NCBI GenBank assembly: GCA_035627515.1
Contig: DASPLQ010000012.1
Coordinates: forward strand, 521,269-565,557
Origin: Vitreimonas sp.
Lineage (GTDB): Bacteria > Patescibacteriota > Microgenomatia > UBA1400 > PJMF01
Reading direction: 5' to 3'
Length of the DNA: 44,289 bases
The notes under the pieces were generated by a model. It saw only the letters and a list, made by a program, of their open reading frames with translations, made no database searches and was not told the DNA's origin. A program made the position numbers and the translations under genes. Positions 20,285 through 40,907 of the stretch are shown here, one piece after another. Position 1 is the first letter of the stretch, and every line of letters starts with the position of its first letter.

Positions 20285-20293
20285 TAAATTTGA

Positions 20294-21176: not shown

Positions 21177-21205
21177 ATTTTGAGAATTAAGTCTCGGGAT
21201 TTTTT

Positions 21206-23206: not shown

Positions 23207-23659
23207 ATGAAGTGTCCATATTGCAATAAGCCCGATACAGCCGTTGTTGACTCGCGCGAAGCCGATGATCAAACCTCAATTCGTCGTCGTCGCACGTGCC
23301 AAAGCTGTGACAAACGTTTCACTACGTATGAGCGAATTGAAGGTATTGATCTCAAAGTCATCAAGAAGGATGGCACCAAAGAAGATTTTAATCGTGAGAA
23401 ATTACGCCGAGGTATTGTCAAAGCCACCTGGAAGCGCCCAGTGTCGATGGCCGACATCGAAGACTTAATCACCGATATCGAGTGTCGCTTGCGCCAAAAG
23501 CAAACCACTGAAGTCAAAAGTTGGGAAATTGGCAATTTAGTCATTAATAGCCTCAGAAAAATCGACAAGTTATCGTACTTGTTGTTCGCCAGTGTCTATC
23601 GAGATTTCGAGAGCATTGATGACTTTGAAACAGAAATTAATAGTTTAAAAGGAGAGTAA
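23207..23659 (+). CDS. nrdR: Transcriptional repressor NrdR
   Basis: MKCPYC...VVDSR...IRRRRTCQSCDKRFTTYER zinc ribbon plus ATP cone. ATG 23207 preferred over TTG 23192. Confidence 0.97.
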   Translation: MKCPYCNKPDTAVVDSREADDQTSIRRRRTCQSCDKRFTTYERIEGIDLKVIKKDGTKEDFNREKLRRGIVKATWKRPVSMADIEDLITDIECRLRQKQTTEVKSWEIGNLVINSLRKIDKLSYLLFASVYRDFESIDDFETEINSLKGE

Positions 23660-23665
23660 TAGTCA

Positions 23666-23755
23666 GAGTAATTAAGTAACTGAGTAATTTAGTAATTGTT
23701 CATCTGAGGCAGCAAGGCTAACAGTGATCTCGATTACTTAATAACTTAATCACTC
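23666..23755. repeat. Octamer-periodic inverted-repeat intergenic element, copy 1
   Basis: AGTAA at 23667, 23675, 23683, 23691; a loop; then GATTACTT AATAACTT AATCACTC (23732-23755). Confidence 0.85.
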
Positions 23756-23777
23756 ACCAACTAAAACGGAGTTTTTT

Positions 23778-25988
23778 ATGTCACCAATGGCATCGTTACC
23801 AAAGAAAAAAATGAAGTTCACTGATCGTAAACTCGACAGTGGCATGGGCATGGCAGTTGCTAAACGTACCTACCTGCGCAAACTGACCGATCCTCAAACC
23901 GGTCGAGAACGCTGGGAAACCTGGGCTGAAGTGGCAGACCGTGTCGCCAACGGCAACAGTGCCTTGTTGAAAAACTTTGGTAAAAAATTTGAAAAAGATC
24001 GCCAAGCTGAGTACGATTTACTCAAGACCCATATCACTAATGGCTCGATCTTGATGTCCGGTCGCCACCTCCAACACGGCGATGAGACCCAACCTACCCG
24101 CAACATGGAGGTTTTCACGAACTGTAGTACGGCATCTTCGTCTTATATTCTGTTTTACTTACTGATGAACGGTTCTGGAGTTGGGCGCCCTTACGACGAC
24201 GATATGTGTGTGGTGAACTGGGACAATATGCCTAACATCCGGTGCGTGATTGCTGATGACCACGCTGATTTTGTCTGGGGCTTTGATGAAAGTGTCCGCG
24301 ATGCAAAGCATAAGTATGGTGACTGTGACGACGAGGGTGTCCACTGGTTTGAAGTGCCTGATAGCCGTGAAGGTTGGGCCCAAGCCGTGGAGATGTTGGA
24401 AGTCATGGCCTATGAGCGCAAGTACAAAGATGACTTATTGATTTTAGATTTCTCTAAAGTTCGTCCTAAAGGTGCCCCGATCAAGGGTATGCAAAACCGT
24501 CCTTCTTCTGGTCCTAAACCATTGATGAACGCGATTTTGAAAGTGGCGACTATCAAAGGGGCTTGCCTCTCACCATGGAAACAAGCCATGTTTGTGGATC
24601 ATTACTTGGCAGAATGTGTGTTAGTAGGAGGTGCTCGTCGCAGTGCCCGGATTGCCACTAAAAACTGGACTGATCCTGAAGTCTTTGATTTCATTAACAT
24701 CAAGCGTGGTGGTTTCTTATGGAGTGCTAATAACTCGGTGGCTGTAGATGACAAATTTTGGAAACAAAAAACTGGTCATGCTCGCAAAGTTTTAGAAGCG
24801 ATCATGAAGGCCTCCTACGAAGATGGTACTGGCGAGCCAGGGTTTATTAACCAACACCGCTTAGTCCAGAACGATGAGGGGTATGAAGGTTACCAAGATG
24901 GCAAGTACGCCGAGAGTTCTAAGTACAAGCCGTTGGCTCGTACCGAGAAAATGTTGTCCAAATTGGCTCGCAACGCCGGCGCGAAAGTCTATTCCCAAAT
25001 TCCTAATCCTTGTGGTGAGATTTCACTCAACATGTTGGGCGGTTACTGTGTGATTGCTGATGTGGTGCCTTATTTTGCACCCAGCATCGACGATGCCGAG
25101 CAAGCCTTCCGAGCTACCACCCGGGCTTTGATGCGCGTCAACAGTATGGACTGTTTGTACAATCGCGAAGTCAAGCGGACCAACCGGATTGGGGTCGGGA
25201 TGACCGGCATTCACGAGTTTGCCTGGAACATGTTTGGATATTCATTCCGCGACGTCATTGATGAAGAGAAAGCCAAAGATTTCTGGATGACGATGGCACG
25301 TTTCAAACGCGCAGTAGTCGAGGAAGCTGAGAGCTATGCCAAAAAATTAGGAGTGGTGGTGCCACACACCAACACTACTATCAAGCCCTCTGGCACGATC
25401 TCGAAGCTGTTTGCCTTGACCGAAGGTGCTCACTTACCCAGTATGCGCGAGTACATTCGCTGGGTGCAGTATCGCAACGATGATCCTCAAGTCAAGAAAT
25501 ACGTGGAAAAGGGATACCCTTTCAAAGAGTTGAAGAGTTATCAAGGTACTACCGCCGTAGGTTTCCCAACTCAGCCGCTCATTTGCCGCTTGGGTATGGG
25601 TGATGAATTAGTGACCGCTGCGGAAGCCACTCCAGAAGAGCAGTACAAATGGTTGATGTTACTCGAGAAATACTGGATTGTGGGTGTGGATGAACAAGGT
25701 AATCCTTTGGAAGACACTGGTAACCAAGTTTCCTACACCTTGAAGTATGATCCTAAACGCGTCACCTATGATGAGTATTCTGAGATGGTGCGTAAGTATC
25801 AAGGTCTCATCAAGTGCTGTTCGGTCATGCCGCAACAAGACAGTACCGCTTACGAGTACCAACCAGAGCAACCAGTCACCATTTCTGAGTTCATGCGCGT
25901 CTTGGATGAAATCGAAAAAGACACCGAGCTCTTGGAAGACATTGATTATGAGCACCTGAAGTGCGAGAGTGGTGCTTGTCCGATTTAA
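23778..25988 (+). CDS. nrdJ: Class II (adenosylcobalamin-dependent) ribonucleotide reductase, monomeric RTPR-like
   Basis: TNCS, GSGVG, NPCGE, TTIKPSGT and C-terminal CESGACPI; follows nrdR; no NrdB/NrdG partner nearby. Confidence 0.85.
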   Translation: MSPMASLPKKKMKFTDRKLDSGMGMAVAKRTYLRKLTDPQTGRERWETWAEVADRVANGNSALLKNFGKKFEKDRQAEYDLLKTHITNGSILMSGRHLQHGDETQPTRNMEVFTNCSTASSSYILFYLLMNGSGVGRPYDDDMCVVNWDNMPNIRCVIADDHADFVWGFDESVRDAKHKYGDCDDEGVHWFEVPDSREGWAQAVEMLEVMAYERKYKDDLLILDFSKVRPKGAPIKGMQNRPSSGPKPLMNAILKVATIKGACLSPWKQAMFVDHYLAECVLVGGARRSARIATKNWTDPEVFDFINIKRGGFLWSANNSVAVDDKFWKQKTGHARKVLEAIMKASYEDGTGEPGFINQHRLVQNDEGYEGYQDGKYAESSKYKPLARTEKMLSKLARNAGAKVYSQIPNPCGEISLNMLGGYCVIADVVPYFAPSIDDAEQAFRATTRALMRVNSMDCLYNREVKRTNRIGVGMTGIHEFAWNMFGYSFRDVIDEEKAKDFWMTMARFKRAVVEEAESYAKKLGVVVPHTNTTIKPSGTISKLFALTEGAHLPSMREYIRWVQYRNDDPQVKKYVEKGYPFKELKSYQGTTAVGFPTQPLICRLGMGDELVTAAEATPEEQYKWLMLLEKYWIVGVDEQGNPLEDTGNQVSYTLKYDPKRVTYDEYSEMVRKYQGLIKCCSVMPQQDSTAYEYQPEQPVTISEFMRVLDEIEKDTELLEDIDYEHLKCESGACPI

Positions 25989-26011
25989 GCTTAATTAACA
26001 GAACAACACAA

Positions 26012-26040
26012 AAAAGGGCTCCTGGATCAGGGGCCCTTTT
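26012..26040 (+). terminator. Rho-independent terminator after nrdJ
   Basis: AAAAGGGCTCCTG-GAT-CAGGGGCCCTTTT. Confidence 0.85.
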
Positions 26041-26079
26041 GGTTGCAGAGAAGAAAGAATTAGCTCATACTGATTAAAT

Positions 26080-26970
26080 ATGTTGGAAAATACCGCAGAT
26101 GACCACAACAGGTTGGCTGAAAATCCCTTCAAAAAAAGTTTTCTTCGTCGTCGGAACACCACTGAAACTGGGGTGAGTGCTCACTCGTCTGCGCCTGAAG
26201 CAAAAGTTGCTCCCCGCCGACAAGCTCCTACTGAACAATTGAAGGCTGCGGCGGCAGAACTAAGTCCTGAGCAGCTACAAGAGGCAGTGAAGCGCCAAGA
26301 GTTACGAGTCAGAATGTTACAAGCCGCGTTAGCAGGTGCTCAAGAAGAGTTGACAATGCTTCAGGATATAAAGGCTGAGCGGCAGACTCGAACTCAAGAA
26401 ATGGATACTACCACCCTCATTGAAAGCATCTCAAATCAATTAGCTGGTATCGAGATTCAAATTAGAGAGGCTTTTAACTTTGAGAGTGTTGAGAAGGCGG
26501 CGTTAGCTGTCGGCGAACAAAAAGGTGCGTTAGCAAATGTGCATTTACAGTTAGAGAAGCTTACATTGGCAGCTATAGGCTCTCTTTCTGAAACGGTGAA
26601 GCAGTTAGAACTCAAGAAACATGAGTTGGCACGTCTAATTGAACACATAGTAATTATTTTAGAGCAGATTTATAAACGTACGGATGGCATCAAGCCGGAA
26701 CCACGAGAGACAGTATGGTTGACTGCACATCAGTCATATAGAGCTATCATGACAGAGGCAGTCGCGCAGCAACATGAAGCATTTTTTCAAGATGTGCTGA
26801 CCAATGGTAAAGAGAGCAGAACAGCTGTTAAGCCACCGAGTTTGCCAACCTTAATTAATAAATTTGGTTTAGAGGCTTTTGGGCTGAGTAATTGGGGAAA
26901 TAAGACAGTACTCATGAGGTCACATTTTCAAGAAATATTCGCACCACCAATTCCAGTGGCGGTATCGTAA
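26080..26970 (+). CDS. Hypothetical coiled-coil-rich protein
   Basis: 296-aa ORF with heptad-like A/E/Q/L runs; no family recognised. Confidence 0.65.
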   Translation: MLENTADDHNRLAENPFKKSFLRRRNTTETGVSAHSSAPEAKVAPRRQAPTEQLKAAAAELSPEQLQEAVKRQELRVRMLQAALAGAQEELTMLQDIKAERQTRTQEMDTTTLIESISNQLAGIEIQIREAFNFESVEKAALAVGEQKGALANVHLQLEKLTLAAIGSLSETVKQLELKKHELARLIEHIVIILEQIYKRTDGIKPEPRETVWLTAHQSYRAIMTEAVAQQHEAFFQDVLTNGKESRTAVKPPSLPTLINKFGLEAFGLSNWGNKTVLMRSHFQEIFAPPIPVAVS

Positions 26971-26981
26971 TTGATCAATTA

Positions 26982-28058
26982 CTAGTTTTCATCCACCTTC
27001 CACCGTGGTCGGCGATCGATATTCTGGGGTTCGGCTGGCACCAACCCCTCAGCCCATCGCAACCCAGCAGCGACTCCAATCATGGCGGCATTATCACCAC
27101 AGAGTTTTTTGGTGTAGGGAGTACTGAGGCGTAAACCGTGAGGTTTTAAGAGCTGGCGCAAACTCTGACGTAACGTCATATTAGCTGCCACACCACCTCC
27201 TAGCCAGACAGCTTTAATTTCGGGATGAGCTCCGAGGAGTTTTTCTAGTTTATAGGTAAGGGCGCGGAAGACTCCTTTTTGAAATGAAGCAGCGAAGTCA
27301 TACACAGTTTGTTTGTCGAGTTTGTTTTCGGTCTCTAGTTTGGTGAGTAAATTGCGGCTATACGTTTTCATGCCGGAAAAACTTAAGTTGAAGTCGCGGC
27401 TGGTAGTCATCGGGAGGGGGAACTTAAAGGTAGTCGCGTCACCAAGTTTGGCAAATTGTTCAATCACGGGGCCAGCGGGATAACCCAAATCCAGCATCCG
27501 CCCCACTTTGTCGAGGACTTCGCCCGCGGCGTCATCGATGGTCCAGCCCAGGCGTTGATACTCACCAATCTTATTCACTAACACAAAATCAGAATGTCCG
27601 CCAGAGATAATTAATGATAGGACAGGGAAACGGAGTGCGGGTGATTGTGAATGTTGGGTTTTGGGTTTTGCTAACACTGAGACCACATGACCTTCAATAT
27701 GATTAACGGGGATGAGGGGCAACTGATGTTCAGCAGCCAGTTGTTTGGCAAATTCGAGGCCAACCTCCAAAGCCGGTGCCAATCCCGGACCTTGGGTGAC
27801 CGCCAGGGCTTGAATGTCTGGCAAGGTAAGACCAGCCCGTTTGAGGGCTGCCGCCACCGTGGGTGCCAAATTTTCGCGATGGGCTTGTTTGGCAACCGTA
27901 GGAAAAACTCCACCATATTGTTTGTGAAGTTGAGCTTGGGAAGCGACGATGTTGGAGAGAACGGTTGTTCCTTGCGTGACCGCCACCGAGGTTTCATCAC
28001 ACGAAGTGTCGATAGCTAAAACAAGAGGCTGAGTGATGTTATTAAACTGAATAGGCAT
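26982..28058 (-). CDS. tsaD: tRNA threonylcarbamoyladenosine synthase TsaD
   Basis: LAIDTSCDETSVA, HKQYGGVFP, GPGL, NHIEGH, DDAAGEVLDK, GGVAAN, CGDNAAMI. Confidence 0.97.
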   Translation of the reverse strand: MPIQFNNITQPLVLAIDTSCDETSVAVTQGTTVLSNIVASQAQLHKQYGGVFPTVAKQAHRENLAPTVAAALKRAGLTLPDIQALAVTQGPGLAPALEVGLEFAKQLAAEHQLPLIPVNHIEGHVVSVLAKPKTQHSQSPALRFPVLSLIISGGHSDFVLVNKIGEYQRLGWTIDDAAGEVLDKVGRMLDLGYPAGPVIEQFAKLGDATTFKFPLPMTTSRDFNLSFSGMKTYSRNLLTKLETENKLDKQTVYDFAASFQKGVFRALTYKLEKLLGAHPEIKAVWLGGGVAANMTLRQSLRQLLKPHGLRLSTPYTKKLCGDNAAMIGVAAGLRWAEGLVPAEPQNIDRRPRWKVDEN

Positions 28059-28135
28059 AGGAAAGAAAGGTATATCAGGTATGGTATTATAGCAATCGTC
28101 CTGTAATAAAAATTTTTAAAACCTGAAATGAGCAT

Positions 28136-29041
28136 ATGCATGAGCGAATTTATTATTTAGGATCAAAGTTATTAGACAATTTAAAACTTACCCACCACAA
28201 GGAAATTGACCCCATTCCTGTTGACTCACTTGAAGCTATTATTACTCAAGTTACTCAAAATGAAAAAGTTGCCCCCACATTTAGAATTAATGCGATGCCA
28301 GCCCTATTTAAGACCAGTGATGGGGAGAGGTCAGCATTTGACGAGGAAATGAAAGCAGCTCAGCCTGATGGATATATTATTGGAGCAGGAACAGGGGGGA
28401 TATTTGCTTTGCTCAAGTATTTCAAAGAGGATAGAGCACCCAAAGGTATCATCATTTCAGATATAGATCCCACTATAATAGTTGCTGCCCGGATAATGAT
28501 AAAGGAATTAAGAGCAGCTAAGAACTATCAAGATTTTGCGAGAAGCTTTTTTTTCCAATCAAATCGAAGCTACCGACATAAAGTAAAAAAAGTACTTGCA
28601 CAAGACAGCTTTTTAAAAAAAGGTTTAAAAGAGTGGGATACCTGGGAAACCCCGATGGAAGCTACTAAAGATTTGTGGTTAGGGAATGTGCCTGAAAAGA
28701 TACAAACACATTTCTCTCTCTTACAACACCTAGCTTTAAATCACCAATTAGCTGCTTGTTATAGTGATGTGCTGAATTTAAAGTTGATTGCGACAATTTG
28801 CTCACTCCCTAATTTTTTAAGTCTGACCAATGTTATTTATTTGACTAATTTATTAGACTACTATCCAGGTTTTCATCAGACTGAAATGCCATCAGAAGTT
28901 AAAAACTTGAGACTCTTTGATCAATCGCAAAAACAACCCCTATTTGTTAGTACACCAATAGTTAGAGATCAAGAATTGTATGTCAGCCGTAGTAGCGATG
29001 AATTGATTTCTTTGAATAAAACGTTTATACCTAAGTCTTAA
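28136..29041 (+). CDS. Hypothetical AT-rich protein with possible Rossmann/SAM-binding fold
   Basis: IIGAGTGG glycine loop, IIISDIDP acidic beta-2 end and VIYLTNLLDY. Confidence 0.5.
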   Translation: MHERIYYLGSKLLDNLKLTHHKEIDPIPVDSLEAIITQVTQNEKVAPTFRINAMPALFKTSDGERSAFDEEMKAAQPDGYIIGAGTGGIFALLKYFKEDRAPKGIIISDIDPTIIVAARIMIKELRAAKNYQDFARSFFFQSNRSYRHKVKKVLAQDSFLKKGLKEWDTWETPMEATKDLWLGNVPEKIQTHFSLLQHLALNHQLAACYSDVLNLKLIATICSLPNFLSLTNVIYLTNLLDYYPGFHQTEMPSEVKNLRLFDQSQKQPLFVSTPIVRDQELYVSRSSDELISLNKTFIPKS

Positions 29042-30131
29042 TCGTTAGCCGCCGCTGATCTTTTTGCAGCGCGTCACCCTCACTAAACACTACTTTTAAT
29101 CGGGGCAAGCCTTGAGCCTTGATTATGGGCATTAGCCAACTCTCCACCTGTGAAAACCACTCAATAATCACCACCGAGCGTGGTGTCAGTAACGTATCCA
29201 CCGCCAAGGCATTAAACTCAGCCTCGGTTTCTATCTTCCACAAATCAAGGTGAAAGAATTTTCCCGCCACACCATGGCGCAAAAATTCGTATTCCTCCAG
29301 ATATGTATAAGTGGGCGAAGTAACTGTCTCGGTTATCCCCAGGAACTCAGCCGCGCCTTTGGCAAAAATCGTCTTACCCATGCCCAGTGAGCCATCCAAA
29401 CCAATCACTAACCCATGAGCTTTGATCTCATTCCAGTGTTTAAGAAGCAACTTGCCAGCAATTTGTTTAGTTTCCATTTCTGACTGGGAAACAAGCTGGG
29501 TAGCCTCCGTAGCGGCTTCGGCAATGTTAGTTTCGCCTTGGCGAAACACCACCGGGGTAGAGAGCGTGGTATCAATTACTGTTGAGGGTGGGTTAGGTGG
29601 CAGTTGACCAGCATCAAGGACGAGATCGATTAAACTTTTTTGTTTTTCAGACAGACCATCAAAAATATCGGTCACAGTGTAGGGCCGTTTGGCATCGGAA
29701 GCATTGGCGGAGGTGGCGGTCATTGGTCGGCCGTAAGCCTTCACGATCTCGACCACTAACGGATAATCAGGAATTCTGACGCCCAGCGTGCCAAATTCAG
29801 ACGCCACACCCTGCGCCACGGTGCCTACACTTTTGGAGACCACGGTCACTGGTCCGGGCAGGAAACGCTCATACAACTTCCGAGCCGAATCATTAACCTC
29901 GACATACTGAGCTGCCATTGCTGGATCGGTAACCGCAATCGAGAGGGGCTTGCCTTCGCGGCGAGCCTTGTAGGCTAATAACTTATCAACTGCGGTTTGG
30001 TTTAAGGCATCGACGCCGGCGCCGTAGGTGGTTTCGGTGGGAAAAATGACTAAGCCACCCGCGCGCAGTATCGCTATGGTCTCAGCGATGACTTGATCAC
30101 GGGGGGTGGTGTGTATATCAATCTTTTTCAC
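29031..30131 (-). CDS. tsaC-tsaE: TsaC (Sua5/YrdC) - TsaE fusion protein
   Basis: N-terminal IFPTETTYG, KARREGKPL, TATSANAS; C-terminal GLDGSLGMGKT, VTSPTY, HLDLWK, IIEW. GTG 30131 preferred over ATG 30206. Confidence 0.92.
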   Translation of the reverse strand: MKKIDIHTTPRDQVIAETIAILRAGGLVIFPTETTYGAGVDALNQTAVDKLLAYKARREGKPLSIAVTDPAMAAQYVEVNDSARKLYERFLPGPVTVVSKSVGTVAQGVASEFGTLGVRIPDYPLVVEIVKAYGRPMTATSANASDAKRPYTVTDIFDGLSEKQKSLIDLVLDAGQLPPNPPSTVIDTTLSTPVVFRQGETNIAEAATEATQLVSQSEMETKQIAGKLLLKHWNEIKAHGLVIGLDGSLGMGKTIFAKGAAEFLGITETVTSPTYTYLEEYEFLRHGVAGKFFHLDLWKIETEAEFNALAVDTLLTPRSVVIIEWFSQVESWLMPIIKAQGLPRLKVVFSEGDALQKDQRRLTIKT

Positions 30132-30137
30132 CTGAGT

Positions 30138-30218
30138 ATTATACGACACATCCCCGAAAACTGCTCTGACCTTCGCCTGGAGAACATAGCTGATAAGGAT
30201 TGGCACTTCTGCTATAAT
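30138..30218. promoter_or_regulatory. Back-to-back -10 elements for probably leaderless genes
   Basis: Minus-strand TATAAT (30138-30143) is 6 nt before GTG 30131. Plus-strand TGcTATAAT (30210-30218) is 5 nt before ATG 30224. Confidence 0.6.
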
Positions 30219-30223
30219 GATCT

Positions 30224-30571
30224 ATGTCTAGTTATCGAACTTCACAGCTTATGAATCAGACTACTGATGGCTCCAATGATTCCATCAAGTTTGATCTCTA
30301 TATCAAGACTCGAGAAATCAAACAAATTGCCGAATCCTTACAACAAGTCATGTTGATGTCTAAGAAGGATCGTCAAGCTTGGGTTAAAGAACACGAACCT
30401 TTTGTCAATCAATTGCTCGATACATTTATGGAAGACGCTTCTTCCGCACTCGATGGGTTATATCTCGATAATGAAGCTTTGAAGATGTCGATGGACTTTG
30501 TGATGAACTTGCGTGATGCCATCAATACGTTACAAGGAATCTTGTACGAGCGCTCCAATTTGAAAAGTTAA
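30224..30571 (+). CDS. Hypothetical helical protein upstream of yidC
   Basis: 115-aa ORF, 5 nt before yidC. Confidence 0.7.
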   Translation: MSSYRTSQLMNQTTDGSNDSIKFDLYIKTREIKQIAESLQQVMLMSKKDRQAWVKEHEPFVNQLLDTFMEDASSALDGLYLDNEALKMSMDFVMNLRDAINTLQGILYERSNLKS

Positions 30572-30576
30572 TCATC

Positions 30577-31383
30577 ATGCCTTTAGCTGAGCTTTTTACC
30601 CTTGTTATTTACCAGCCTTTTTTTAATGTTTTGATTTTCTTTTATTGGATGTTGGGCCAAGTTAGTCCTGGTCCTGCTGACATGGGTATAGCGGTGATTT
30701 TGTTGACGATCCTGATTCGTTTTTTGCTGCTCCCCATCTCATTGATGGAAGATCGCTCGGAAGAAGAACGGCGCAACATTGCTCATCGCATCAAAGAACT
30801 GGAAGTTGAGCTGGCTCATGATCCGGTGAAGTTGCGCAGTGAAGTCAAAGCTTTGTTTAAAAGCAAACCGAGAGTTGTGGCAGGTGAGTTGTTTTCGTTG
30901 TTTATTCAAGTTTCCACCTCATTGATGTTGTGGAGAATCTTCAGCAGTGGTTTAGAAGGTCGCGATTTGCACCTGATTTATTCGTTCATGCCTCAAGTAG
31001 AATTACCGTTTAATTTAGTTTTTTTGGGCCAATTTGATTTGGCGCACACGAGCTTTTTCTTGAACTTACTCCAATCAATCCTGATTTTTGTCTTAGAAAC
31101 AATTTCGATTTATACCTCGCCGTATCCACCGGGGCAGGGTGAAGTAGTCCGGATGCAGTTGGTTTTACCAGTAGTGTCATTTGTGATTTTCATGGGTTTA
31201 CCAGCCGGGAAAAAGCTGTTTGTGATTACGGCTTTGATTTTTAGTATTGTTGTCACGATCATTAAGGCCGTGCGCCGCCGTTTTGAAGCCTATCGCATCG
31301 AGCAGGAGCTGAAAGAAGCTGAAGCAGCTGCTCTGGCTGCAGCTGGTGGAGAGTCAGAAAAGGTAGTTGTCGAGGTAAAGTAA
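30577..31383 (+). CDS. yidC: Membrane protein insertase, short YidC/Oxa1 family
   Basis: YQPFFNVL...GIAVILLTILIRFLLLP, coiled-coil hairpin and several TM helices. Confidence 0.85.
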   Translation: MPLAELFTLVIYQPFFNVLIFFYWMLGQVSPGPADMGIAVILLTILIRFLLLPISLMEDRSEEERRNIAHRIKELEVELAHDPVKLRSEVKALFKSKPRVVAGELFSLFIQVSTSLMLWRIFSSGLEGRDLHLIYSFMPQVELPFNLVFLGQFDLAHTSFFLNLLQSILIFVLETISIYTSPYPPGQGEVVRMQLVLPVVSFVIFMGLPAGKKLFVITALIFSIVVTIIKAVRRRFEAYRIEQELKEAEAAALAAAGGESEKVVVEVK

Positions 31384-31422
31384 CCTCCGCTGTTGCTTTT
31401 TTAATCTTCAGAGTACAATACT

Positions 31423-31520
31423 AAGTAAGTAATTAAGTAACTTAGTAATTGAGTAATTTGTTTTCCCAGTCAATTATTTTGTTTCTTATTTACTGAATTA
31501 CTTATTTACTGAATTACTTA
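31423..31520. repeat. Octamer-periodic inverted-repeat intergenic element, copy 2
   Basis: AGTAA at 31428, 31436, 31444, 31452; TTACT at 31490, 31498, 31506, 31514 (TATTTACTGAATTACT x2). Confidence 0.9.
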
Positions 31521-31524
31521 ATGT

Positions 31525-32139
31525 ATGGAATTTGATCGCCTGGTAGTCTCATTTTTAGTCGATGAAGTCGTGGGTGGCTTTTTTATTTCTGTTCCACCTG
31601 GGCACATTGCTTGTGTTTATGATCGTGGCAGAGGAGTGTTACCCAAAGTGTGGGGACCCGGTCTGCACTTAAAAATTCCTTTTTGGCAGGTAGCAAAGTT
31701 ATTCACGGCTCAGGTATTAGAGTACTCAATTCGTGAAGGTTTTGACACTTCTAAAAATAAAGAAGCCTTAGGTGACACACCTATTACCACCAGTACCAAA
31801 GATGGTAAAGACATCTCAGTAGAAGGATCAGTTTTATTTAGAATTGATAAGAATAATGCTCCCGAGCTCTGGGAAAACATTGGTGAAAGTGTGGTCTCCA
31901 AGGTGGTTCGGCCTTTTTCACGGAGCAGAATCTCTTCAGTTTTCTCTGAGTTAACTTTAGATCAAATTAAACAAAACCGCTCTCAAGTAGAAACGATTGT
32001 CAAAGAAGATCTCAGTCATCACTTTCAAAACCGTGGTTTAGAGTGCGAAGGTTTTTTGTTATCTGAAGTCAAAATGAGCCGTGGCGGCCGCGAAGAAACC
32101 GTGATCAGTGTCGAGCCAACACCCACCGTTACTCCTTAA
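31525..32139 (+). CDS. SPFH/band 7/prohibitin-domain protein (short, no clear TM)
   Basis: VPPGHIACVYDRGRGV...PGLHLKIPF, TKDGKDISVE.SVLFRI. Confidence 0.85.
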   Translation: MEFDRLVVSFLVDEVVGGFFISVPPGHIACVYDRGRGVLPKVWGPGLHLKIPFWQVAKLFTAQVLEYSIREGFDTSKNKEALGDTPITTSTKDGKDISVEGSVLFRIDKNNAPELWENIGESVVSKVVRPFSRSRISSVFSELTLDQIKQNRSQVETIVKEDLSHHFQNRGLECEGFLLSEVKMSRGGREETVISVEPTPTVTP

Positions 32140-32173
32140 CTTTTCTGTTATTTTATCCGCGAACTATTGAGGC

Positions 32174-33727
32174 CTACAGTAAACACGTCTCAAAGAAGTG
32201 TCCAGCCAGCAAAGTGTAATCCACAATATTCACGTTACCATCCTGGTTAATATCAGCGCGAGGTGTAGTCAGCTGGGTTTGAAAAAAGTTAGTGGCTAAA
32301 ATGGTGTAATCGACAATATTGACAGTGCCATCCTGATTGATATCAGCTGCACAGACATCACTGGGAGGTGGTGTAGGAGTCGGGCTAGGGCTGGGCGTGG
32401 GAGTAACCGATGGTGACGGTGAGGGACTGGGGGTCGGTGAAGCCACACTTCCGCCAGGAGGTGCTACTACCTGTGGTGCCGCAGGATTTTCAGTGGGACC
32501 GTACTCATGAGTCAAGCGACCATACGGTAGAGTCGAGCCACTCTTGAATGTAGTGCCAGCATCGGCTTGGGTTTTCATGACGCCCGTAGTGTAATAACGA
32601 TACGCCAGGAATAAATTGCCACGCCGCATGTCTTGCCAACTGCGAGATTTGCTGGCATCAATAGGATTTTGAATGACAAACAAAATGGCTGTGCGCAAAG
32701 AACCTTTACCAGCTACGTTATGGTCGTATAAACGAGTGTCACCCCGATGCCACAAAAACTCCGCGTGGAAAATCAACCCTTCGATAGCTAAAGCAGTGTA
32801 GCTATACGCGTCATCTTCAGAAACTAACCATTGGCCAGTACAGCCAGTATTGCCGCGGCGAAGTTCTTCAGGAAGGCCGCCGTAAGTTTGGATGCCACGA
32901 ATATCACATTGAGCATCGCCCACTAAAGTTCCAGAAATCCGATCCAGCTGAAGCTGGTTGTGTTGTTGGTAGGCTTGGGCGGGGGTTAAACTCACTGCTG
33001 AGGGTGAAACCTCACTCAAGGTGACGCTGCCCTGGCGATCAGCTAAGTAATCACCAATCATCGCTGCTGACACCGACCCAAAAACGCCCCAGTTGTTGGC
33101 ACGTTCACGACTGGCCCAGGCCACTTTTTTGTAGACATGATCGCGCAACCAATTTTGAAACTGGAGTTTATCAGCACTTGTCCAGACTTCAGACTCTTCC
33201 AGTAAGTCAGCAGATTGGATCCAGAGTGGGATAGCAAATGCGAGCTTTAAAATACACTCATTGTTGCCCGAATACGTTTCTCCACCAAAGGTGTGAGTAT
33301 CAGTCAAATCTAAGATTTTTTCCCGAGCCGCAGCGGCGTAGGCTACGTTGCCGGTCAAATGATAAGCCAATACTTTGTCATAGACGAGTGTCCCGCCATC
33401 CTCTGGTGCCAAAAAGTTGTCGGCGCTAAAGTTGCTCGGTGAGAAACACTCGCCACTGCCAGAGACGTTAAACTCACCACTGACGCTGCCATAAGACCAA
33501 TGATCAGCCGGCTCCAACCGGTCCATGAAGTCGGCGACGTTTTGTTGGTAGGGTTGTTGATTCTGACTAGCTTTAGTTTTGATAGCTGATAACTCGGTGG
33601 GAGAGGTAATATAGCCACGGGAGTTTAAGCCGGTAGCGGCTTGGATTGGTACTGGTCTTGACCAGAACCAGCTGATACCACTTATCACTGTCAGGGACAA
33701 TAAAAGGTAAGTTACAATTTTGCGCAC
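32174..33727 (-). CDS. Secreted alginate-lyase-like (alpha/alpha toroid) protein with Pro/Thr linker and C-terminal dockerin
   Basis: Signal peptide; RANNW, EELRR and YSY motifs; (SP/TP)n linker; two Ca-binding repeats ADINQDGxVNIVDY. Confidence 0.7.
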   Translation of the reverse strand: MRKIVTYLLLSLTVISGISWFWSRPVPIQAATGLNSRGYITSPTELSAIKTKASQNQQPYQQNVADFMDRLEPADHWSYGSVSGEFNVSGSGECFSPSNFSADNFLAPEDGGTLVYDKVLAYHLTGNVAYAAAAREKILDLTDTHTFGGETYSGNNECILKLAFAIPLWIQSADLLEESEVWTSADKLQFQNWLRDHVYKKVAWASRERANNWGVFGSVSAAMIGDYLADRQGSVTLSEVSPSAVSLTPAQAYQQHNQLQLDRISGTLVGDAQCDIRGIQTYGGLPEELRRGNTGCTGQWLVSEDDAYSYTALAIEGLIFHAEFLWHRGDTRLYDHNVAGKGSLRTAILFVIQNPIDASKSRSWQDMRRGNLFLAYRYYTTGVMKTQADAGTTFKSGSTLPYGRLTHEYGPTENPAAPQVVAPPGGSVASPTPSPSPSPSVTPTPSPSPTPTPPPSDVCAADINQDGTVNIVDYTILATNFFQTQLTTPRADINQDGNVNIVDYTLLAGHFFETCLL

Positions 33728-33926
33728 AGCTTATTCTATCAAATATATCAAAAGATATCATTTTCTTGCTTTTTTCTTACTCAATTGTAGTTTTTTGTGT
33801 AGATCTGCGGCGTATAGTAAGAACTATTATCATTTACGGAGGTTTGTATGTGTGTTCGCATTAGCTATCGCAAAAAGCTACTCAACATTTAAGTGCTTAA
33901 CTTAACCGTGATGTCAGGAATGTATC

Positions 33927-35228
33927 ATGCATGTGGTTTTTATGTCTCCGCACTCAGATCCTGAGGCTCATCTTGGTGAACCTGATTCAGGGGGTCAGTG
34001 TATTTATGAACAACAACTAGGCAAAGCGTTGACGCGTCAGTTCGATGACATCGATGTGACGATTTTTTGTCGTGACACCAAGCGCCGTCCTCGCCACACC
34101 TGGCTCAGTGATCGTTGCCAGGTGATTCGGATTGAGTGTGGCGCCACCGACTATATTCCTAAAGAACACATTGAAGCAGCGCTCCCTAAGTTTGTGCACC
34201 AAGTGGTGCGCTTTTTACCTTTTCAAGAATCGGTAGTGGTGCATGGTCATTATTGGGATGGCGGCAAAGCCAGTTTACAACTGAAGCGGCTATTGCCTAA
34301 GCCGATGCCGTTGGTCTGGACACCTCACTCTCTAGGTAGTTTGAAAAGACAAAACTTCAAAGGTCTCAATCACGAAGTGGAGTATAACTTTATTCCTCGG
34401 ATCACGTGGGAAAATTACACTGCATTTTCTGCTGAATCGGTGATCGTTTCGAGTGTCCAAGAAAAAAAAGTGCTGACCGATGAGTACTTACTCAAACCCA
34501 CCAAAGTAGAAATTATTCCTCCTGGGATTGATTTAGAACAACTACAACCCATCAATCAACGTGATGCCCGTCAAAAGTATCACTTACCGGAAGATGGCAA
34601 GGTTATTTTGTGTCTGGGTCGGATGACGCCTGCCAAAGGGTATGAGCACGCCATCCATGGTTTAGCGAGTTTATTACAAAAATATACTGAGCCAGTTTAT
34701 TTGGTGATTTGTGGCGGTTCAGCTGACAACCAAACACTAGAAGAAAAGAAGTACTATGATTCTTTAGTCGAAATAGTTAAGGATTTAAGGCTACAAAAGC
34801 AAGTCATCTTTCTCTCGGCTGTGCCTCACGATGAAATTAACGAGTTGTATAGTGCAGCTGATATTTTTGTCTTACCTTCTGAACACGAGCCATTTGGACT
34901 AGTAGCATTGGAAGCTATGGCGTGTGGAGTGCCACTGGTGGCAGCCAATACGGGTGGTTTAGCTAGCTCACTCCAACACAACCTGCATGCGTGTTTAGTT
35001 AATATTCATAACTCTGAGCGGTTGTCATATTACTTCTTATCGTTACTCAAAGATACTCAATTTCGTCACAAATTAATTCGCAATGGCCAGAACTTAGTTA
35101 AAGAAAGTTATGGATGGGATGCCCGGGCTACCGAGTTTGCCCAAGTGTATCGTCAGGTACTGTCTAAGCCGTCACCCTTTTTTCATACTTGGGTTAATAA
35201 TAACTATTTTTTGAATGCCAACGTCTGA
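33927..35228 (+). CDS. GT4 glycosyltransferase, sucrose-phosphate-synthase-like
   Basis: SPHSDP...DSGGQCIY, HGHYWDGG, TPHSLG and EPFGLVALEAMACG. Confidence 0.85.
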   Translation: MHVVFMSPHSDPEAHLGEPDSGGQCIYEQQLGKALTRQFDDIDVTIFCRDTKRRPRHTWLSDRCQVIRIECGATDYIPKEHIEAALPKFVHQVVRFLPFQESVVVHGHYWDGGKASLQLKRLLPKPMPLVWTPHSLGSLKRQNFKGLNHEVEYNFIPRITWENYTAFSAESVIVSSVQEKKVLTDEYLLKPTKVEIIPPGIDLEQLQPINQRDARQKYHLPEDGKVILCLGRMTPAKGYEHAIHGLASLLQKYTEPVYLVICGGSADNQTLEEKKYYDSLVEIVKDLRLQKQVIFLSAVPHDEINELYSAADIFVLPSEHEPFGLVALEAMACGVPLVAANTGGLASSLQHNLHACLVNIHNSERLSYYFLSLLKDTQFRHKLIRNGQNLVKESYGWDARATEFAQVYRQVLSKPSPFFHTWVNNNYFLNANV

Positions 35229-37003
35229 TGTTTTACTACATTAAAGAAAATTATTACTTCGATATTGATCTATATCACCAATTTCGGATTACGGGGCCGG
35301 CTAATCATTTGTTGCTCGGTTTAAGTTTGCCTAAAGGCGTACCATTGGAGGTCAAAGAGTATTATATCGAGAATGAGCAGCTAGTCGTAAAGTTAGAGCT
35401 ATTGGCTGATCAATTACAACTCCCCTTGCCACTGGTGACTGATATTAGAACTTTGCGGGCTTTGACCGAGCCAAAGACGCCGCGTCCTACCTATCAAGAA
35501 CTACTGCTGCAATCACCTGAGTTAGTCAAACCGCGCACTATTACCCAACGTCAAGATGATGAGTTTCAAGTTATTACCTTTACCAATCAGTATCAAGAGC
35601 TTGATAAACCATTGACGTATGGTTCTGAGTTGTGGTTACCAAAAGAGTATTGGGTAGAGCTGAGTGAAACGCAGTTGCAGATCAAAGCCGAAAGTCCTTT
35701 GGTGCTGTGTATCAAAACTCAAAACAATGTTACTTCCAAAGCACCAGCTACTAAACAGTTGTTCAAAGAAGCAACTCAGTTGCCTGAAAACATGTTTAGT
35801 CAAAAATTAATTAAGCTCTATACCGATGCTTATCAGCACATTGAACATTTGATCAAAGCCCAAAAAACCAGCAGCTTTGAGTATGGCACCGTTTTCCCAC
35901 GGGATTGGATTGAGTCAGCTGATTTGGGGAGTACAGAACTGACGCAGGATACCATTGATTACATGTACTCACAGGCGATGGAGTTTGTCTCTGATGATGG
36001 GGAAGGGTGGCACGAGAATATCGTGGGGGAGTTCAAACACAAAAATGCTGACGAATCGACGCATATTGATCGTAAAATGATTGATATTGAACCACGGTAC
36101 ATCATGGGTGTGAGGCGGGTGAGTAAAAAATTTTTAACCGATCCTGAGCATCATCGCCGATTAAAATTGATAGCGAAATTTATTTTGAAAAATGCAGCTG
36201 AGTGTCACCAAATCTCCTTCAAGAAACGGAGGGATTCTGAAGAATATGAAGTGGTTGGCAATTGGCGAGATAGTTACTATGGTTACCCACGTCATAAAGC
36301 ACCACTCTCTCCATACGATGTTAACTGCGTTTTTTATCCGATTAGTTTAAAAATTATCCAAGAGTTCGCTGATTATTTTGAGATTGAAGATAAAGAACAC
36401 TTGGCTACCTTAATTAAAAAATGGGATGAGCAAAAAGTTCGCTTTCGTTTGTATCATGACGATAATTTAATCGGTTATTCTTTAGCCCTCCATGGCAAGA
36501 AACGTTTGCCGCTGCCAATTGCGCACCTCGATGAAAGTTATGATTTGTTTTATGGTTCACCCAGCATGGAAGAGATTGTCAGCTTTGCCCAAAAAATCAC
36601 CAGTCCGCACTTTTTTTATAGTCCTAGCGGTCCATTGTTAGTGGACATTGATGATGACTTTTTTACCACCGAACACTATCACGGTAAAGTCATTTGGCCC
36701 AAACAAGCTGCGTTTTCTATAGCGGGGTTAGCGCGACAGTTGCAACGTGGTCATCAAGAATTATGGCCGCGGGCAGTTTTGGAAACTATTCAGGAAAGTA
36801 TTATCACTACGGCTCAGGCTTGTTTCCGGGCTTGGGAACAGTTGGAAGCGATTCCGGAGCTTTATTATCATGATTTTATGGAGAACCGAGCCCGGTTATA
36901 CACCGATCAAGCACAGATTGAAGGTCAGATGAGCTTGATTCAATTATGGTCTGCCGTCGGAGGACGGCGAATTATGCAGGAATATGTAAAAGTAATTGAG
37001 TAA
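35228..37003 (+). CDS. (alpha/alpha)6 glycoside hydrolase, amylo-alpha-1,6-glucosidase/GDE-like
   Basis: YGTVFPRD, NWRDS, YDVN, HLDES and YHGKVIWP motifs; start overlaps the GT4 stop (TGATG). Confidence 0.65.
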   Translation: MFYYIKENYYFDIDLYHQFRITGPANHLLLGLSLPKGVPLEVKEYYIENEQLVVKLELLADQLQLPLPLVTDIRTLRALTEPKTPRPTYQELLLQSPELVKPRTITQRQDDEFQVITFTNQYQELDKPLTYGSELWLPKEYWVELSETQLQIKAESPLVLCIKTQNNVTSKAPATKQLFKEATQLPENMFSQKLIKLYTDAYQHIEHLIKAQKTSSFEYGTVFPRDWIESADLGSTELTQDTIDYMYSQAMEFVSDDGEGWHENIVGEFKHKNADESTHIDRKMIDIEPRYIMGVRRVSKKFLTDPEHHRRLKLIAKFILKNAAECHQISFKKRRDSEEYEVVGNWRDSYYGYPRHKAPLSPYDVNCVFYPISLKIIQEFADYFEIEDKEHLATLIKKWDEQKVRFRLYHDDNLIGYSLALHGKKRLPLPIAHLDESYDLFYGSPSMEEIVSFAQKITSPHFFYSPSGPLLVDIDDDFFTTEHYHGKVIWPKQAAFSIAGLARQLQRGHQELWPRAVLETIQESIITTAQACFRAWEQLEAIPELYYHDFMENRARLYTDQAQIEGQMSLIQLWSAVGGRRIMQEYVKVIE

Positions 37004-37066
37004 TTAAGTAAACTGCGCAACAACAAGCAACTCAATTACTTAGTTACTTAACTACTAATTTACTTA
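36990..37066. repeat. Octamer-periodic inverted-repeat intergenic element, copy 3
   Basis: AGTAA at 36991, 36999, 37007; TTACT/CTACT at 37036, 37044, 37052, 37060. Confidence 0.9.
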
Positions 37067-37081
37067 AACTGGAGATTATCT

Positions 37082-38125
37082 ATGCGCATTGTCCAAGTTG
37101 CCCCTCTCGAAGAATCAGTCCCGCCCAAAAAATATGGTGGCACAGAATTGGTGATTCATAATGTCACCGAAGAATTAGTCAAAAAAGGCCATGAGGTGTA
37201 CTTGTTAGGAGCTGGTGATTCAGAGACAAGTGCCCACTTGATTCCCATTCTGCCTCAGTCATTGCGGAAGATGTACTCGCCGGAAGAAATTGATACTTGG
37301 CGGGACTTTTTAAAGATATTTCATATCTCCACGATCTTAAAAACGATCCGTGACCTTAAACCCGACATCGTCCATAATCACTACGCGTGGCGTTTGATTC
37401 AGTTTTTAGATTTTATTGATTGTCCTGTCTACAGCACCATGCATGGGCCACTAACTAAAATTCAAGAACGTTATGTGTATCAGCAGTACCCGGAAGCCAA
37501 TTATATTTCTATTTCTAATAATCAGCGCAAAGCACTCCCTGAGTTGAATTGGGTTAAGACGATTTACAACGGGATTGAGGTCGAAAAATTTGAACTCGGC
37601 ACTGGTCAGCGAGATTACTTTGTGTTTTTAGGCCGCACGACGCCAGATAAAGGTCTGAAAGAAATTATTCACATGATAAAAAAGACGTCGCACCAATTAA
37701 AGATAGCTGCAAAGGTCGACACCACTGATCAGGCCTATTTTGAACAAGAAATTAAACCTTTTATTGATGGCCAGCAAATTGAGTTTTTGGGTGAAGTCGA
37801 TCACGCTGGCAAAGTAGCGCTGCTCAAAAAAGCGAAAGCGTTGTTATTATGGCTGAATTGGGAAGAGCCCTTTGGTTTGGTCGTCACTGAAGCCATGGCG
37901 TGCGGTACGCCGGTGATTGTTAATCGTCGTGGCTCAATGCCTGAGCTGATCATAGAAGGACAAACAGGATTTTTGGTCAACACTATTGAAGAGATGGCCG
38001 CACAGTTGGACAACACTGACCGCGTTTCCCCCCAGGACTGCCGGGCCCATGTAGAAGCCAACTTTTCAGCGGCAAAAATGGCTGATGAGTACTTAGAGTT
38101 AGCGGGCAAATTGACTGGGAGCTAA
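37082..38125 (+). CDS. GT4 glycosyltransferase
   Basis: PPKKYGGTE, DIVHNH and WEEPFGLVVTEAMACGTPVI. Confidence 0.92.
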   Translation: MRIVQVAPLEESVPPKKYGGTELVIHNVTEELVKKGHEVYLLGAGDSETSAHLIPILPQSLRKMYSPEEIDTWRDFLKIFHISTILKTIRDLKPDIVHNHYAWRLIQFLDFIDCPVYSTMHGPLTKIQERYVYQQYPEANYISISNNQRKALPELNWVKTIYNGIEVEKFELGTGQRDYFVFLGRTTPDKGLKEIIHMIKKTSHQLKIAAKVDTTDQAYFEQEIKPFIDGQQIEFLGEVDHAGKVALLKKAKALLLWLNWEEPFGLVVTEAMACGTPVIVNRRGSMPELIIEGQTGFLVNTIEEMAAQLDNTDRVSPQDCRAHVEANFSAAKMADEYLELAGKLTGS

Positions 38126-38129
38126 GACC

Positions 38130-38765
38130 ATGACGTCACCAAAAGGAATTGCACTCGATATTGACGATACCTTGTGTGATACCGCCCGGGTGGTAATGAA
38201 AACGTTGGCACAGGAATTTCCCCAGCTGGCCAGCGAAGCGATCGAAGATTTGTTGGCTAAATACCAACAACCTGAGAAAGTGCCCACCTGGCAAATGAAT
38301 GAAGTTCATGATCGGCGCTGGAAGCTTTTGACTACCGAAGAGTTTATGTACAACCTGCCCCCCATACCCGGAGCCCAAGCAGGGGTGGCTCGCTTGGCGC
38401 AACACCTACCTATTCGCTGTTATATCTCGTCACGATTGGATCACTTGACCTCAGTCTCGCGGCGGTGGTTACGGGCTCACGGTTTTCCCGACGCGCCTCT
38501 CTTTTTGCGTCACCCTGACCAGCTGGCAGTGGATTGGAAACTGCCGCACCTGGCAGAAATGGGAGATGTATGTGGCTTAGTAGATGATAATCTGGGAGCA
38601 ATGGAAATTGATGCTCAACAATGGCCTTTTACCTTATATTGGTACAATCCTTACCGAGTGCCGGCGATGGTTTCCGGACTGGTGCCTTTTTATTCCTGGG
38701 CAGATTTCACCCTCTTACATCCCGATAACTCCAAGACCCCAGTTGACAAAAAATTAGCAGTCTAA
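38130..38765 (+). CDS. HAD-superfamily phosphatase (NT5C/YqfW-like)
   Basis: IALDIDDTLCD motif I, PPIPGA, ISSR and LVDD motif IV. Confidence 0.8.
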   Translation: MTSPKGIALDIDDTLCDTARVVMKTLAQEFPQLASEAIEDLLAKYQQPEKVPTWQMNEVHDRRWKLLTTEEFMYNLPPIPGAQAGVARLAQHLPIRCYISSRLDHLTSVSRRWLRAHGFPDAPLFLRHPDQLAVDWKLPHLAEMGDVCGLVDDNLGAMEIDAQQWPFTLYWYNPYRVPAMVSGLVPFYSWADFTLLHPDNSKTPVDKKLAV

Positions 38766-38771
38766 TACCAT
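38743..38771 (+). promoter_or_regulatory. groE sigma70 promoter
   Basis: TTGACA-N17-TACCAT. Confidence 0.8.
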
Positions 38772-38812
38772 ATCTGCTAGTGAAGGTAGCAGAGTTCTGA
38801 TACTGCTGCTAA
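38754..38812 (+). promoter_or_regulatory. Tandem CIRCE-like (HrcA) operators
   Basis: TTAGCA-N15-TGCTAG (38754-38780) and GTAGCA-N15-TGCTAA (38786-38812), 32 bp apart. Confidence 0.75.
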
Positions 38813-38876
38813 CAAAAAGTACTCTATTAATCGCCAAGCTTAGCTTGGCTCATTACACCTTATCAAGGAGGTATTT

Positions 38877-39182
38877 ATGGCAGAGAATTTTTCTGTCGCG
38901 AACATTAAGCCTTTACCCGGCTACATTTTGGTGGAACCAGCTCAAGGTCAAAAGCAAACTGCATCTGGGATTTATTTACCCGACTCACACGAAGAGAAGC
39001 CACAACACGGCACGGTCTTAGCCGTCGGTGACGCCACGGTTGAAGAGGGTAAAGAAGTGAAATGCCCTGTCAAAGTCAAAGATCACGTCATTTACAAAAA
39101 ATGGGGTGGAAATGAGTTTAAAGTGGGAGAGATTGAGTACCAAATCCTCAAGTTCGAGGATGTATTAGCGCAAGTTAAATAA
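38877..39182 (+). CDS. groES: Co-chaperonin GroES
   Basis: IKPL...ASGIYLPD...EKPQHGTVLAVG; GGAGG RBS. Confidence 0.97.
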   Translation: MAENFSVANIKPLPGYILVEPAQGQKQTASGIYLPDSHEEKPQHGTVLAVGDATVEEGKEVKCPVKVKDHVIYKKWGGNEFKVGEIEYQILKFEDVLAQVK

Positions 39183-39258
39183 TTAAGTAAATTAGTAACT
39201 AGTAACTAAGTAATTAAGCAACGAGAACTTCACAATTACTCAATGACTCAATTACTTA
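39177..39258. repeat. Octamer-periodic inverted-repeat intergenic element, copy 4
   Basis: AGTAA at 39186, 39194, 39201, 39209 (AGCAA at 39217); TTACT/TGACT at 39236, 39244, 39252. Confidence 0.88.
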
Positions 39259-39266
39259 CCAACTAG

Positions 39267-40907
<1,641 letters not shown>

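Follow-up and report, generated by a model that had tools for sequence, protein, structure and literature searches.

Inverted octamer arrays at gene junctions of a candidate phyla radiation bacterium belong to a cross-phylum family of hairpin-forming elements and resemble the arms of PF05635 cassettes

Results

The DNA analyzed here, a stretch of 44,289 nucleotides (nt) with 43% G+C that we call the window, derives from contig DASPLQ010000012.1 of a soil bacterium of the candidate phyla radiation (CPR) with a tiny genome. At four of its gene junctions lies an intergenic element consisting of a 5' arm of three to five tandem NAGTAAYT units, a short loop, and three to five reverse-complement units; 5' units read AGTAAYTN, and 3' units read NARTTACT, the complement. 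Direct reading of the sequence found all four copies where a first-pass annotation, made from the letters alone, had placed them. By Pfam, the flanking genes encode NrdR and class II ribonucleotide reductase (copy 1), YidC and a Band_7 (SPFH) protein (copy 2), an unnamed 591-amino-acid protein and a family 4 glycosyltransferase (GT4; copy 3), and Cpn10 and Cpn60 (copy 4). The gene names of the first-pass annotation agree with these assignments except for a “glycosidase,” the 591-amino-acid protein, which has no Pfam hit. Our analysis shows that these sites form a genuine family of intergenic elements, dispersed and able to fold into hairpins. Judged by sequence comparison, their word, architecture, and polarity are common to at least 115 loci in many phyla, and their arm design is identical to that of cassettes enclosing a PF05635 gene.

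In copy 1, the 5' arm (23666-23697) is composed of four units, GAGTAATT AAGTAACT GAGTAATT TAGTAATT, followed by a private loop of 34 nt (23698-23731) and by three partly degenerate units, GATTACTT AATAACTT AATCACTC (3' arm, 23732-23755); the nrdJ ATG (23778) is 22 nt beyond. A unit-like octamer at the end of nrdR, GAGTAATA (23654-23661, plus strand), contains the nrdR TAA (23657-23659) and is located 4 nt 5' of the array. Copy 2 begins with a degenerate unit followed by AGTAATTA AGTAACTT AGTAATTG AGTAATTT (5' arm, 31420-31459) and continues through a private loop of 27 nt (31460-31486) into TATTTACT GAATTACT TATTTACT GAATTACT TAA (3' arm, 31487-31521), where an exact private block of 16 nt is duplicated 2.2 times; the ATG of the SPFH gene (31525) is 3 nt beyond. 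The 5' arm of copy 3 (36990-37012) reads AAGTAATT GAGTAATT AAGTAAA, and the open reading frame (ORF) of the 591-amino-acid protein runs 14 nt into it, to a stop codon supplied by the second unit (TAA, 37001-37003). A private loop of 17 nt (37013-37029) separates it from four to five 3' units, CAATTACT TAGTTACT TAACTACT AATTTACT (37030-37067), after which come a GGAG ribosome-binding site and the GT4 ATG (37082). Copy 4 has the 5' arm AAATAATT AAGTAAAT TAGTAAC TAGTAACT AAGTAATT AAG (39177-39219), in which one unit is 7 nt long and the first unit includes the groES TAA (39180-39182), a private loop of 13 nt (39220-39232), and the 3' arm CAATTACT CAATGACT CAATTACT TA (39233-39258), followed by a GGAGG ribosome-binding site and the groEL ATG (39279). 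Unit number and unit order vary among the four copies, and their loop sequences are mutually unrelated.

A fifth, minimal copy, which the first-pass annotation did not list, is TCGTAATTGATCAATTACT (26965-26983), a loopless form with a single unit in each arm. Within it, a perfect 16-nt palindrome, GTAATTGATCAATTAC (26967-26982), bridges the 11 nt that separate two convergent genes. The left unit carries the TAA of the plus-strand gene (26968-26970), and the TAG of the minus-strand gene (26982-26984) adjoins the right end as part of a minus-strand TAGTAATT unit.

Copies 1 to 4 are convergent inverted pairs between co-oriented ORFs, located at most 50 bp from the upstream stop codon or overlapping it, and they end 3 to 22 nt before the following start codon. 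The upstream TAA is part of a unit in copies 3 and 4, as the first-pass annotation had noticed, and nrdR and yidC likewise terminate in AGTAA. That annotation had also proposed that the period of 8 places stop codons in all frames of both strands; this holds on the plus strand for all four left arms and on the minus strand for three of the four right arms. Because they begin on or within the upstream stop codon and carry all-frame stops, the arrays can occupy a cistron boundary and leave the neighboring genes undamaged.

Tandem Repeats Finder called a period of 8 on all eight arms of copies 1 to 4, which are also the strongest local inverted repeats of the window (arms of 18 to 37 nt, 76 to 87% complementary); besides them, no AGTAA or TTACT clusters were found in the 44-kb window. 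The pattern AGTAAN3AGTAAN3AGTAA with at most one mismatch has 14 matches in the window, versus a mean of 0.01 in 100 dinucleotide-preserving shuffles, an enrichment that the first-pass annotation had wished to see checked. Furthermore, positions 39186-39336 are present without difference in an independent second soil sample (run X2), which argues that the copy structure is not an assembly artifact. Chance clustering in AT-rich intergenic DNA, or faulty assembly, might be suspected from the AT-rich units and the base composition of the window; it is refuted by the shuffles, by the second sample, and by the occurrence of the same elements in genomes of much higher G+C content (see below).

The predicted RNA folds of copies 1 to 4 range from -12.6 to -24.8 kcal/mol (z-scores of -2.0 to -4.7), with about one mismatch per eight stem bases. 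No promoter-like or terminator-like consensus was found on these copies, the 14 terminator-like sites between 23000 and 40000 all lying elsewhere. A promoter is therefore ruled out, as is an intrinsic (Rho-independent) terminator, given that the AU-rich stems have no trailing T run and no called site. Separately, a stem, GAGGT-AAAGTA-ACCTC, lies over the yidC stop (31370-31410), 39 nt 5' of copy 2, with a T-rich stretch next to it; it may be a weak terminator-like hairpin and was not called by the consensus scan. At the gathering scores of its families, Rfam 15 has no match for the copies; a tRNA is its sole match in the window, and likewise in 14 related loci, and it detects no rRNA in the window.

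A scan of one genome per prokaryotic species with AGTAAN3AGTAAN3AGTAA-N(8-38)-TTACTN3TTACT yielded no fewer than 115 loci, often several per genome and spread over at least a dozen phyla. All 115 matches listed are inverted AGTAANNN arrays, and their arms contain units beyond those that the pattern demands on the left in 85 and on the right in 82 cases. According to record titles, the hosts among the matches listed include Prevotella, Leyella, Alistipes, Hymenobacter, Spirosoma, and Flavobacterium; Nitrospirae, Chloroflexi, Acidobacteria, Verrucomicrobiae, Lacipirellulaceae, Calditrichaeota, Chitinispirillaceae, and Chthonomonadia; and Melainabacteria, Peribacteria, Saccharibacteria, Ectobacillus, Paenibacillus, a Bifidobacterium metagenome-assembled genome, and Mesorhizobium (locus L071, with an assembly gap within the array). 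A search for RNA sequencing runs found none for the window or for Prevotella locus L001, and the runs listed for L071 proved to be from other organisms or to consist of DNA-like contigs. The G+C content exceeds 55% in 53 of the 115 loci listed (range, 55 to 68%), and the AGTAA arrays are compositional outliers there. About 35 of the 115 carry the word of the window, AGTAAYTN, chiefly in Chloroflexota and Nitrospirota, with single cases in Acidobacteria and Saccharibacteria, and the bases at the unit's three free positions are typical of a lineage (AGTAAAAA in Prevotella, AGTAACAA in Alistipes, and AGTAAATG in Hymenobacter). This distribution contradicts the view of the first-pass annotation that the element is lineage specific.

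The association with stop codons extends to this larger set. In 140 arms drawn from the cross-phylum matches listed, an ORF of at least 80 codons ends within the AGTAA arm in 50 cases (36%), versus 4.4% for positions drawn at random from those loci, and 31 of these 50 ends use the TAA of the AGTAA core. On viral contigs, AGTAA hairpins are rare: the hairpin pattern has three matches there, and the pattern of reversed polarity also has three, of which two plainly lack the layout of an inverted array and one is an ambiguous AT-rich repeat, so that this test of polarity is underpowered. The purine- or G-rich form of the unit is found in the 5' arm of seven inverted-array elements outside the AGTAA selection (L044, L108, L124, L128, L200, L210, and L227), a rule drawn from small numbers and with one ambiguous counterexample (L080, about 4020-4110). 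On either strand, this form is oriented 5' to 3' toward the center, an arrangement like that of a telomere-telomere fusion. Heptamer pairs of Xanthomonas share the “convergent” polarity (PMC4692102).

Two Alistipes loci (L010, 700-1889, and L075, 4300-5270) contain nested inverted-pair mosaics of ATTAGTA heptamers, GGGARATTA-type units, and AGTAACAA octamers, which are reminiscent of clusters of bacterial interspersed mosaic elements (BIMEs). Dense heptamer arrays are also present in 2 of 80 unrelated GroEL loci (L124, 1800-3520, and L128, 16460-16580), the latter with a clear inverted AGGTTCA pair. Inverted-array elements are patchy, yet readily met by chance.

Further copies in this genome were sought by aligning contigs of the source metagenome to copy 2. 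The 32-nt, four-unit block of its 5' arm (31427-31458) has exact matches on two other contigs, the depth of which is the same (about 37x), in line with the expectation of the first-pass annotation that copies exist beyond the four. More arrays, among them one tight hairpin with a 12-nt gap, are present on these two contigs and on the contig of the window itself outside the window. Octamers of the AATTACTN type may also precede rpsD, rmlB, and a GT4 gene of the same genome. That distant sites share an identical order of several units indicates that whole arms were copied or have a common ancestry. Arms also change by local slippage, as indicated by the private 16-nt duplication in the 3' arm of copy 2, which looks like a recent event.

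The first-pass annotation had suggested comparing the groES-groEL junction among relatives. In the three nearest relatives among 80 metagenome GroEL loci (GroEL identities of 83, 67, and 61%), the octamer hairpin is absent from this junction, which instead contains unrelated GC hairpins in two and a 14-nt spacer in one. In the closest of them (L116, 83% identity), the spacer hairpin (1095-1180) is the GC-rich CCCGCCGTTGGCGGG. Because the hairpin-free relatives are distant, the comparison establishes gain in the lineage rather than recent insertion. A conserved groESL regulatory hairpin is rejected on these grounds, and a conserved operon-regulatory role is weakened as well.

These observations bear on the idea that the hairpins are homegrown, i.e., that slippage around TAA stops, mirroring by template switching, and selection as intercistronic mRNA stem-loops (for stability or stoichiometry) produced them with no cassette or mobility involved. 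The differences in unit number, order, and loops among the copies, the private duplication in copy 2, the coincidence of array starts with stop codons, and the significantly stable folds would all fit such an origin. However, the same four-unit block occurs free of mismatches at no fewer than three distant sites of the genome, the same word is found as a compositional outlier in GC-rich genomes of other phyla, and the groES-groEL insert is missing from the nearest available relatives; moreover, selection for pairing alone would not keep the word constant across phyla. We consider a homegrown origin improbable.

Mobile palindromes are a second class to be considered, namely, repetitive extragenic palindromic (REP) sequences or REPINs moved by a tyrosine-HUH transposase (the REP-associated tyrosine transposase, RAYT) or classical MITEs (miniature inverted-repeat transposable elements) moved in trans by an insertion sequence transposase. 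Like REP/BIME and REPIN-RAYT systems of Proteobacteria, which are short multicopy extragenic palindromes often located between cotranscribed genes and able to stabilize upstream mRNA, the window copies are intergenic, palindromic, multicopy, and without a coding frame. However, REPs are single imperfect palindromes of 20 to 40 nt with a GTAG-type foot and a dedicated RAYT gene, whereas the arms in the window are periodic arrays. The first-pass annotation saw no GTAG foot, target duplication, or transposase, and we agree: neither end of copies 1 to 4 has a GTAG foot, no duplication is distinguishable because the TAA at both ends belongs to the repeat itself, and a Pfam scan of the 37 window ORFs revealed no transposase or RAYT domain. 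A MITE of the Correia/NEMIS, RUP, or BOX kind is likewise rejected, since the copies share the 8-nt unit and some multiunit blocks but neither a full-length consensus nor unique terminal inverted repeats. Taken together, movement of this type is very unlikely.

Correia/NEMIS elements of Neisseria and the intercistronic sites of phage T7 are transcribed inverted repeats that are cut by RNase III, which uncouples the stability of neighboring messages. In the former, the terminal inverted repeats are unique and the target duplication is TA; the latter are single evolved hairpins. Both are functional analogs of what the window copies may be, and neither is built of tandem units.

The link to PF05635 (23S rRNA intervening-sequence protein, S23p, Avd-like) comes from eight cassettes, all in Chloroflexota, of which four have the word of the window. 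In L080 (Promineifilaceae), a 176-amino-acid ORF located between CoxM-like and CoxS-like genes matches PF05635 (E = 1e-22) and has more than 3,000 homologues, mostly in Chloroflexota. Its left arm is AGTAATTA-ATAATTGG-GTAATTAA..., and its right arm, which includes AATTACTC, is ...GATTACTC-AATTACCC; the first unit holds the upstream stop, and the right arm holds the stop of the ORF itself. A gene-less hairpin (3212-3276) is found 1.8 kb downstream of the ORF, i.e., cassette and hairpin coexist on one contig. Other cassettes occupy three junctions, coxM/coxS (L196/L234), glpB-like/glpC-like (L197 and L226), and allG/cyclase (L200, L210, and L227), with GTAATTGR arms at the first two and GAGATTGG or GGTATTGG arms at the third. 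In L044, the PF05635 gene is a more typical one, and its arms are made of heptamers (GGACTGA). Each of the eight cassettes points the same way as both of its neighboring genes. No hairpin locus was found at the cassette junctions by tblastn with AllG, cyclase, GlpB-like, GlpC-like, CoxM, and CoxS, and the PF05635 subfamily was not found on viral contigs.

An orthologous gene-less hairpin downstream of an amidase gene in L080 and L234 retains GTAATT units while the adjacent PF05635 proteins are only 65 to 66% identical, indicating that the word is maintained. The 3' arm and loop of the hairpin in these loci (L080, 3212-3300, and L234, 8330-8400) have become coding sequence for the N-terminal signal-peptide region of a GDSL lipase (MMQHKIIAQLLSYL...). 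The next junction downstream (L080, about 4015-4110, and L234, about 9140-9230) has a second inverted-array hairpin, distinct from the first, whose units are of the AGTATTCA/ACTGAATA type; thus, three consecutive junctions of this operon region bear array elements. In L108 (1100-1400), a putative truncated GxxExxY (PDDEXK_3-like) gene fragment, recognized by its similarity to a probe sequence, lies between the inverted arrays GCAGAGAC/GCGGAGG and CCTCAGCG/CCTCTGCGG, which suggests that PF05635 may not be the sole cargo within such arms.

The GTAATTGR cassettes are 54 to 77% identical to each other at the protein level and 50 to 58% identical to those with GAGATTGG or GGTATTGG arms, i.e., the arm word tracks the protein groups weakly. 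This shift of the word with the PF05635 subgroup, together with its conservation far past the needs of pairing (across phyla and between orthologous copies) and the presence of the purine-rich form in the 5' arm of non-AGTAA families as well, could be explained if the octamers were arrays acting at the DNA level, to which a sequence-specific protein, be it of the nucleoid or partition type or a PF05635 ring, would bind cooperatively, with the hairpin potential being secondary. On the other hand, a period of 8 bp is unlike the helical repeat, the exact placement on stops within operons fits better with a distribution driven by effects on the transcript or by tolerance, and the weak covariation of protein and arm is confounded with shared descent at each junction. 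Binding arrays therefore appear unlikely as the primary explanation, though they deserve some weight.

Two further loci in the window are mentioned for completeness. A polymorphic-toxin locus (9230-21949) encodes a 2,524-amino-acid RHS-repeat protein (RHS_repeat and DUF6531), followed by small genes with immunity-type domains (Imm26 with DUF4259, Imm40, DUF4304, and DUF2314). Genes of the t6A pathway are clustered on the minus strand (26982-30206), including TsaD (26982-28058) and a Sua5/YrdC-TsaE fusion (29031-30206).

Discussion

With moderate confidence, we favor the composite explanation that the window copies are gene-less members of a class of foldback cassettes similar to ORF-bearing intervening sequences (IVSs), tolerated at cistron junctions and forming putative RNase III-type stems. 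Its parts differ in strength: membership in a cross-phylum class of array hairpins is much more secure than derivation from PF05635 cassettes, and least certain of all is the RNase III step. The window copies would be deletion derivatives or nonautonomous relatives of PF05635 cassettes. They would be cotranscribed with the operon and fold into AU-rich stems of 20 to 37 bp with a mismatch about every 8 bp, which would resemble the stems excised by RNase III from S23p-bearing IVSs of rRNA (PMC4990558). If so, the likely effect of the stems would be intercistronic processing or cleavage, or none. The copies may be tolerated because translation ends in any frame on either strand and the neighboring ORFs stay intact. 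Since the word is conserved beyond what pairing needs, a sequence-specific partner is suggested, possibly the PF05635 protein.

Several points weigh against this explanation. (i) A cassette lies within 8 kb in only 1 of the 115 hairpin loci listed, i.e., the association of hairpins with PF05635 rests on few Chloroflexota loci. (ii) Cassettes remain at the same junction over a range of 50 to 77% protein identity, which indicates long residence rather than frequent movement. (iii) Pfam found no PF05635 gene among the 37 window ORFs, and the unrelated loops of copies 1 to 4 are too short to be traced to the interior of a cassette. (iv) To our knowledge, no activity as a nuclease, recombinase, or DNA-binding protein has been assigned to PF05635.

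The closest known counterpart of a complete cassette is the IVS itself. In Coxiella, the IVS in 23S rRNA contains an S23p ORF with adjacent tandem heptamers (GACAGAT), whose number varies among strains, and is excised by RNase III (Warrier et al., PMC4990558). ORF-bearing IVSs with S23p/PF05635 are known from Coxiella burnetii, Leptospira, Xanthomonas, and Brucella; their distribution is sporadic, and they are viewed as selfish inserts (PMC4990558). The window copies share with them the long inverted-repeat stem that bounds the element, and the full form also shares the enclosed gene for a PF05635 four-helix bundle. In contrast, the window loops (13 to 34 nt) contain no ORF, the arms consist wholly of 8-nt units, and the copies reside between protein-coding genes rather than in helix 25 or 45 of 23S rRNA. 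Because the loops are without an ORF while relatives with the same word (L080, L196/L234, L197, and L226) enclose PF05635, the window copies can only be gene-less relatives.

Arrays of comparable layout have also been recognized outside rRNA. The short tandemly repeated repetitive (STRR) heptamers of cyanobacteria, reportedly described by Mazel and colleagues in 1990, are said to be dispersed tandem 7-nt units in intergenic operon spacers. We know of no description of them as obligatory inverted pairs, and they differ from the window copies in period and phylum. Rehm et al. (2015) described tandem heptamers, GGGAATC in Xanthomonas and GGGGA(C/T)T in Nostoc PCC 7120, that are intergenic and mostly located between co-oriented genes (PMC4692102). 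In Xanthomonas, there are 70 to 75 convergent pairs per genome, strongly biased to positions at most 50 bp from the upstream stop or over it, and mostly transcribed (PMC4692102). All four window copies resemble these in being convergent inverted pairs between aligned ORFs near or over the upstream stop, whereas the published units are G rich with a period of 7, and those of the window are AT rich, have a period of 8, and are without G runs. Rehm et al. read the heptamers as quadruplex forming and did not mention S23p/PF05635 (PMC4692102).

The element thus looked newer in the first-pass annotation than it is, the class having been published as inverted 7-nt arrays at stops in Xanthomonas (PMC4692102). 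It is new as an 8-nt, AT-rich, gene-less form in a CPR bacterium; its kind is already known in pieces and unexplained. Among the papers that could be searched, we found none on PF05635, S23p, or four-helix-bundle proteins with repeat-array arms and none linking short-tandem-array arms to PF05635 outside rRNA, and a literature text search with the unit sequence returned primers only.

As a more tentative extension of the composite explanation, the AGTAAYTN hairpins and the GTAATTGR-armed PF05635 cassettes could be two forms of one protein-coupled, cross-phylum insertion module, in which an Avd-like ring would read its own 8-nt word in register, the word would coevolve with the protein, and gene-less copies would be made or maintained in trans. 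If this were true, the polarity of the arms would reflect templated repeat addition at DNA ends and not cut-and-paste transposition. Such a module would also account for the most frequent class of prokaryotic intergenic tandem repeats, those with periods of 7 to 8 nt; Mori et al. found tandem heptamers to be the most abundant, with “no clue” to their function (PMC6344855).

Whichever form the relationship takes, one AT-rich octamer word is found in a fixed architecture on stop codons in CPR bacteria, Chloroflexota, Nitrospirota, Bacteroidota, and others. For genome annotation, such arrays account for unusual codons at the C terminus, long spacers within operons, the lack of Shine-Dalgarno sites, and some of the sequence that codes for signal peptides. 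As the same word forms the arms around PF05635, a large family of unexplained function, a testable partner is now at hand for both the repeats and the protein. Our findings further suggest that the intervening sequences of 23S rRNA are a special case of a cassette that also lives in ordinary operons.

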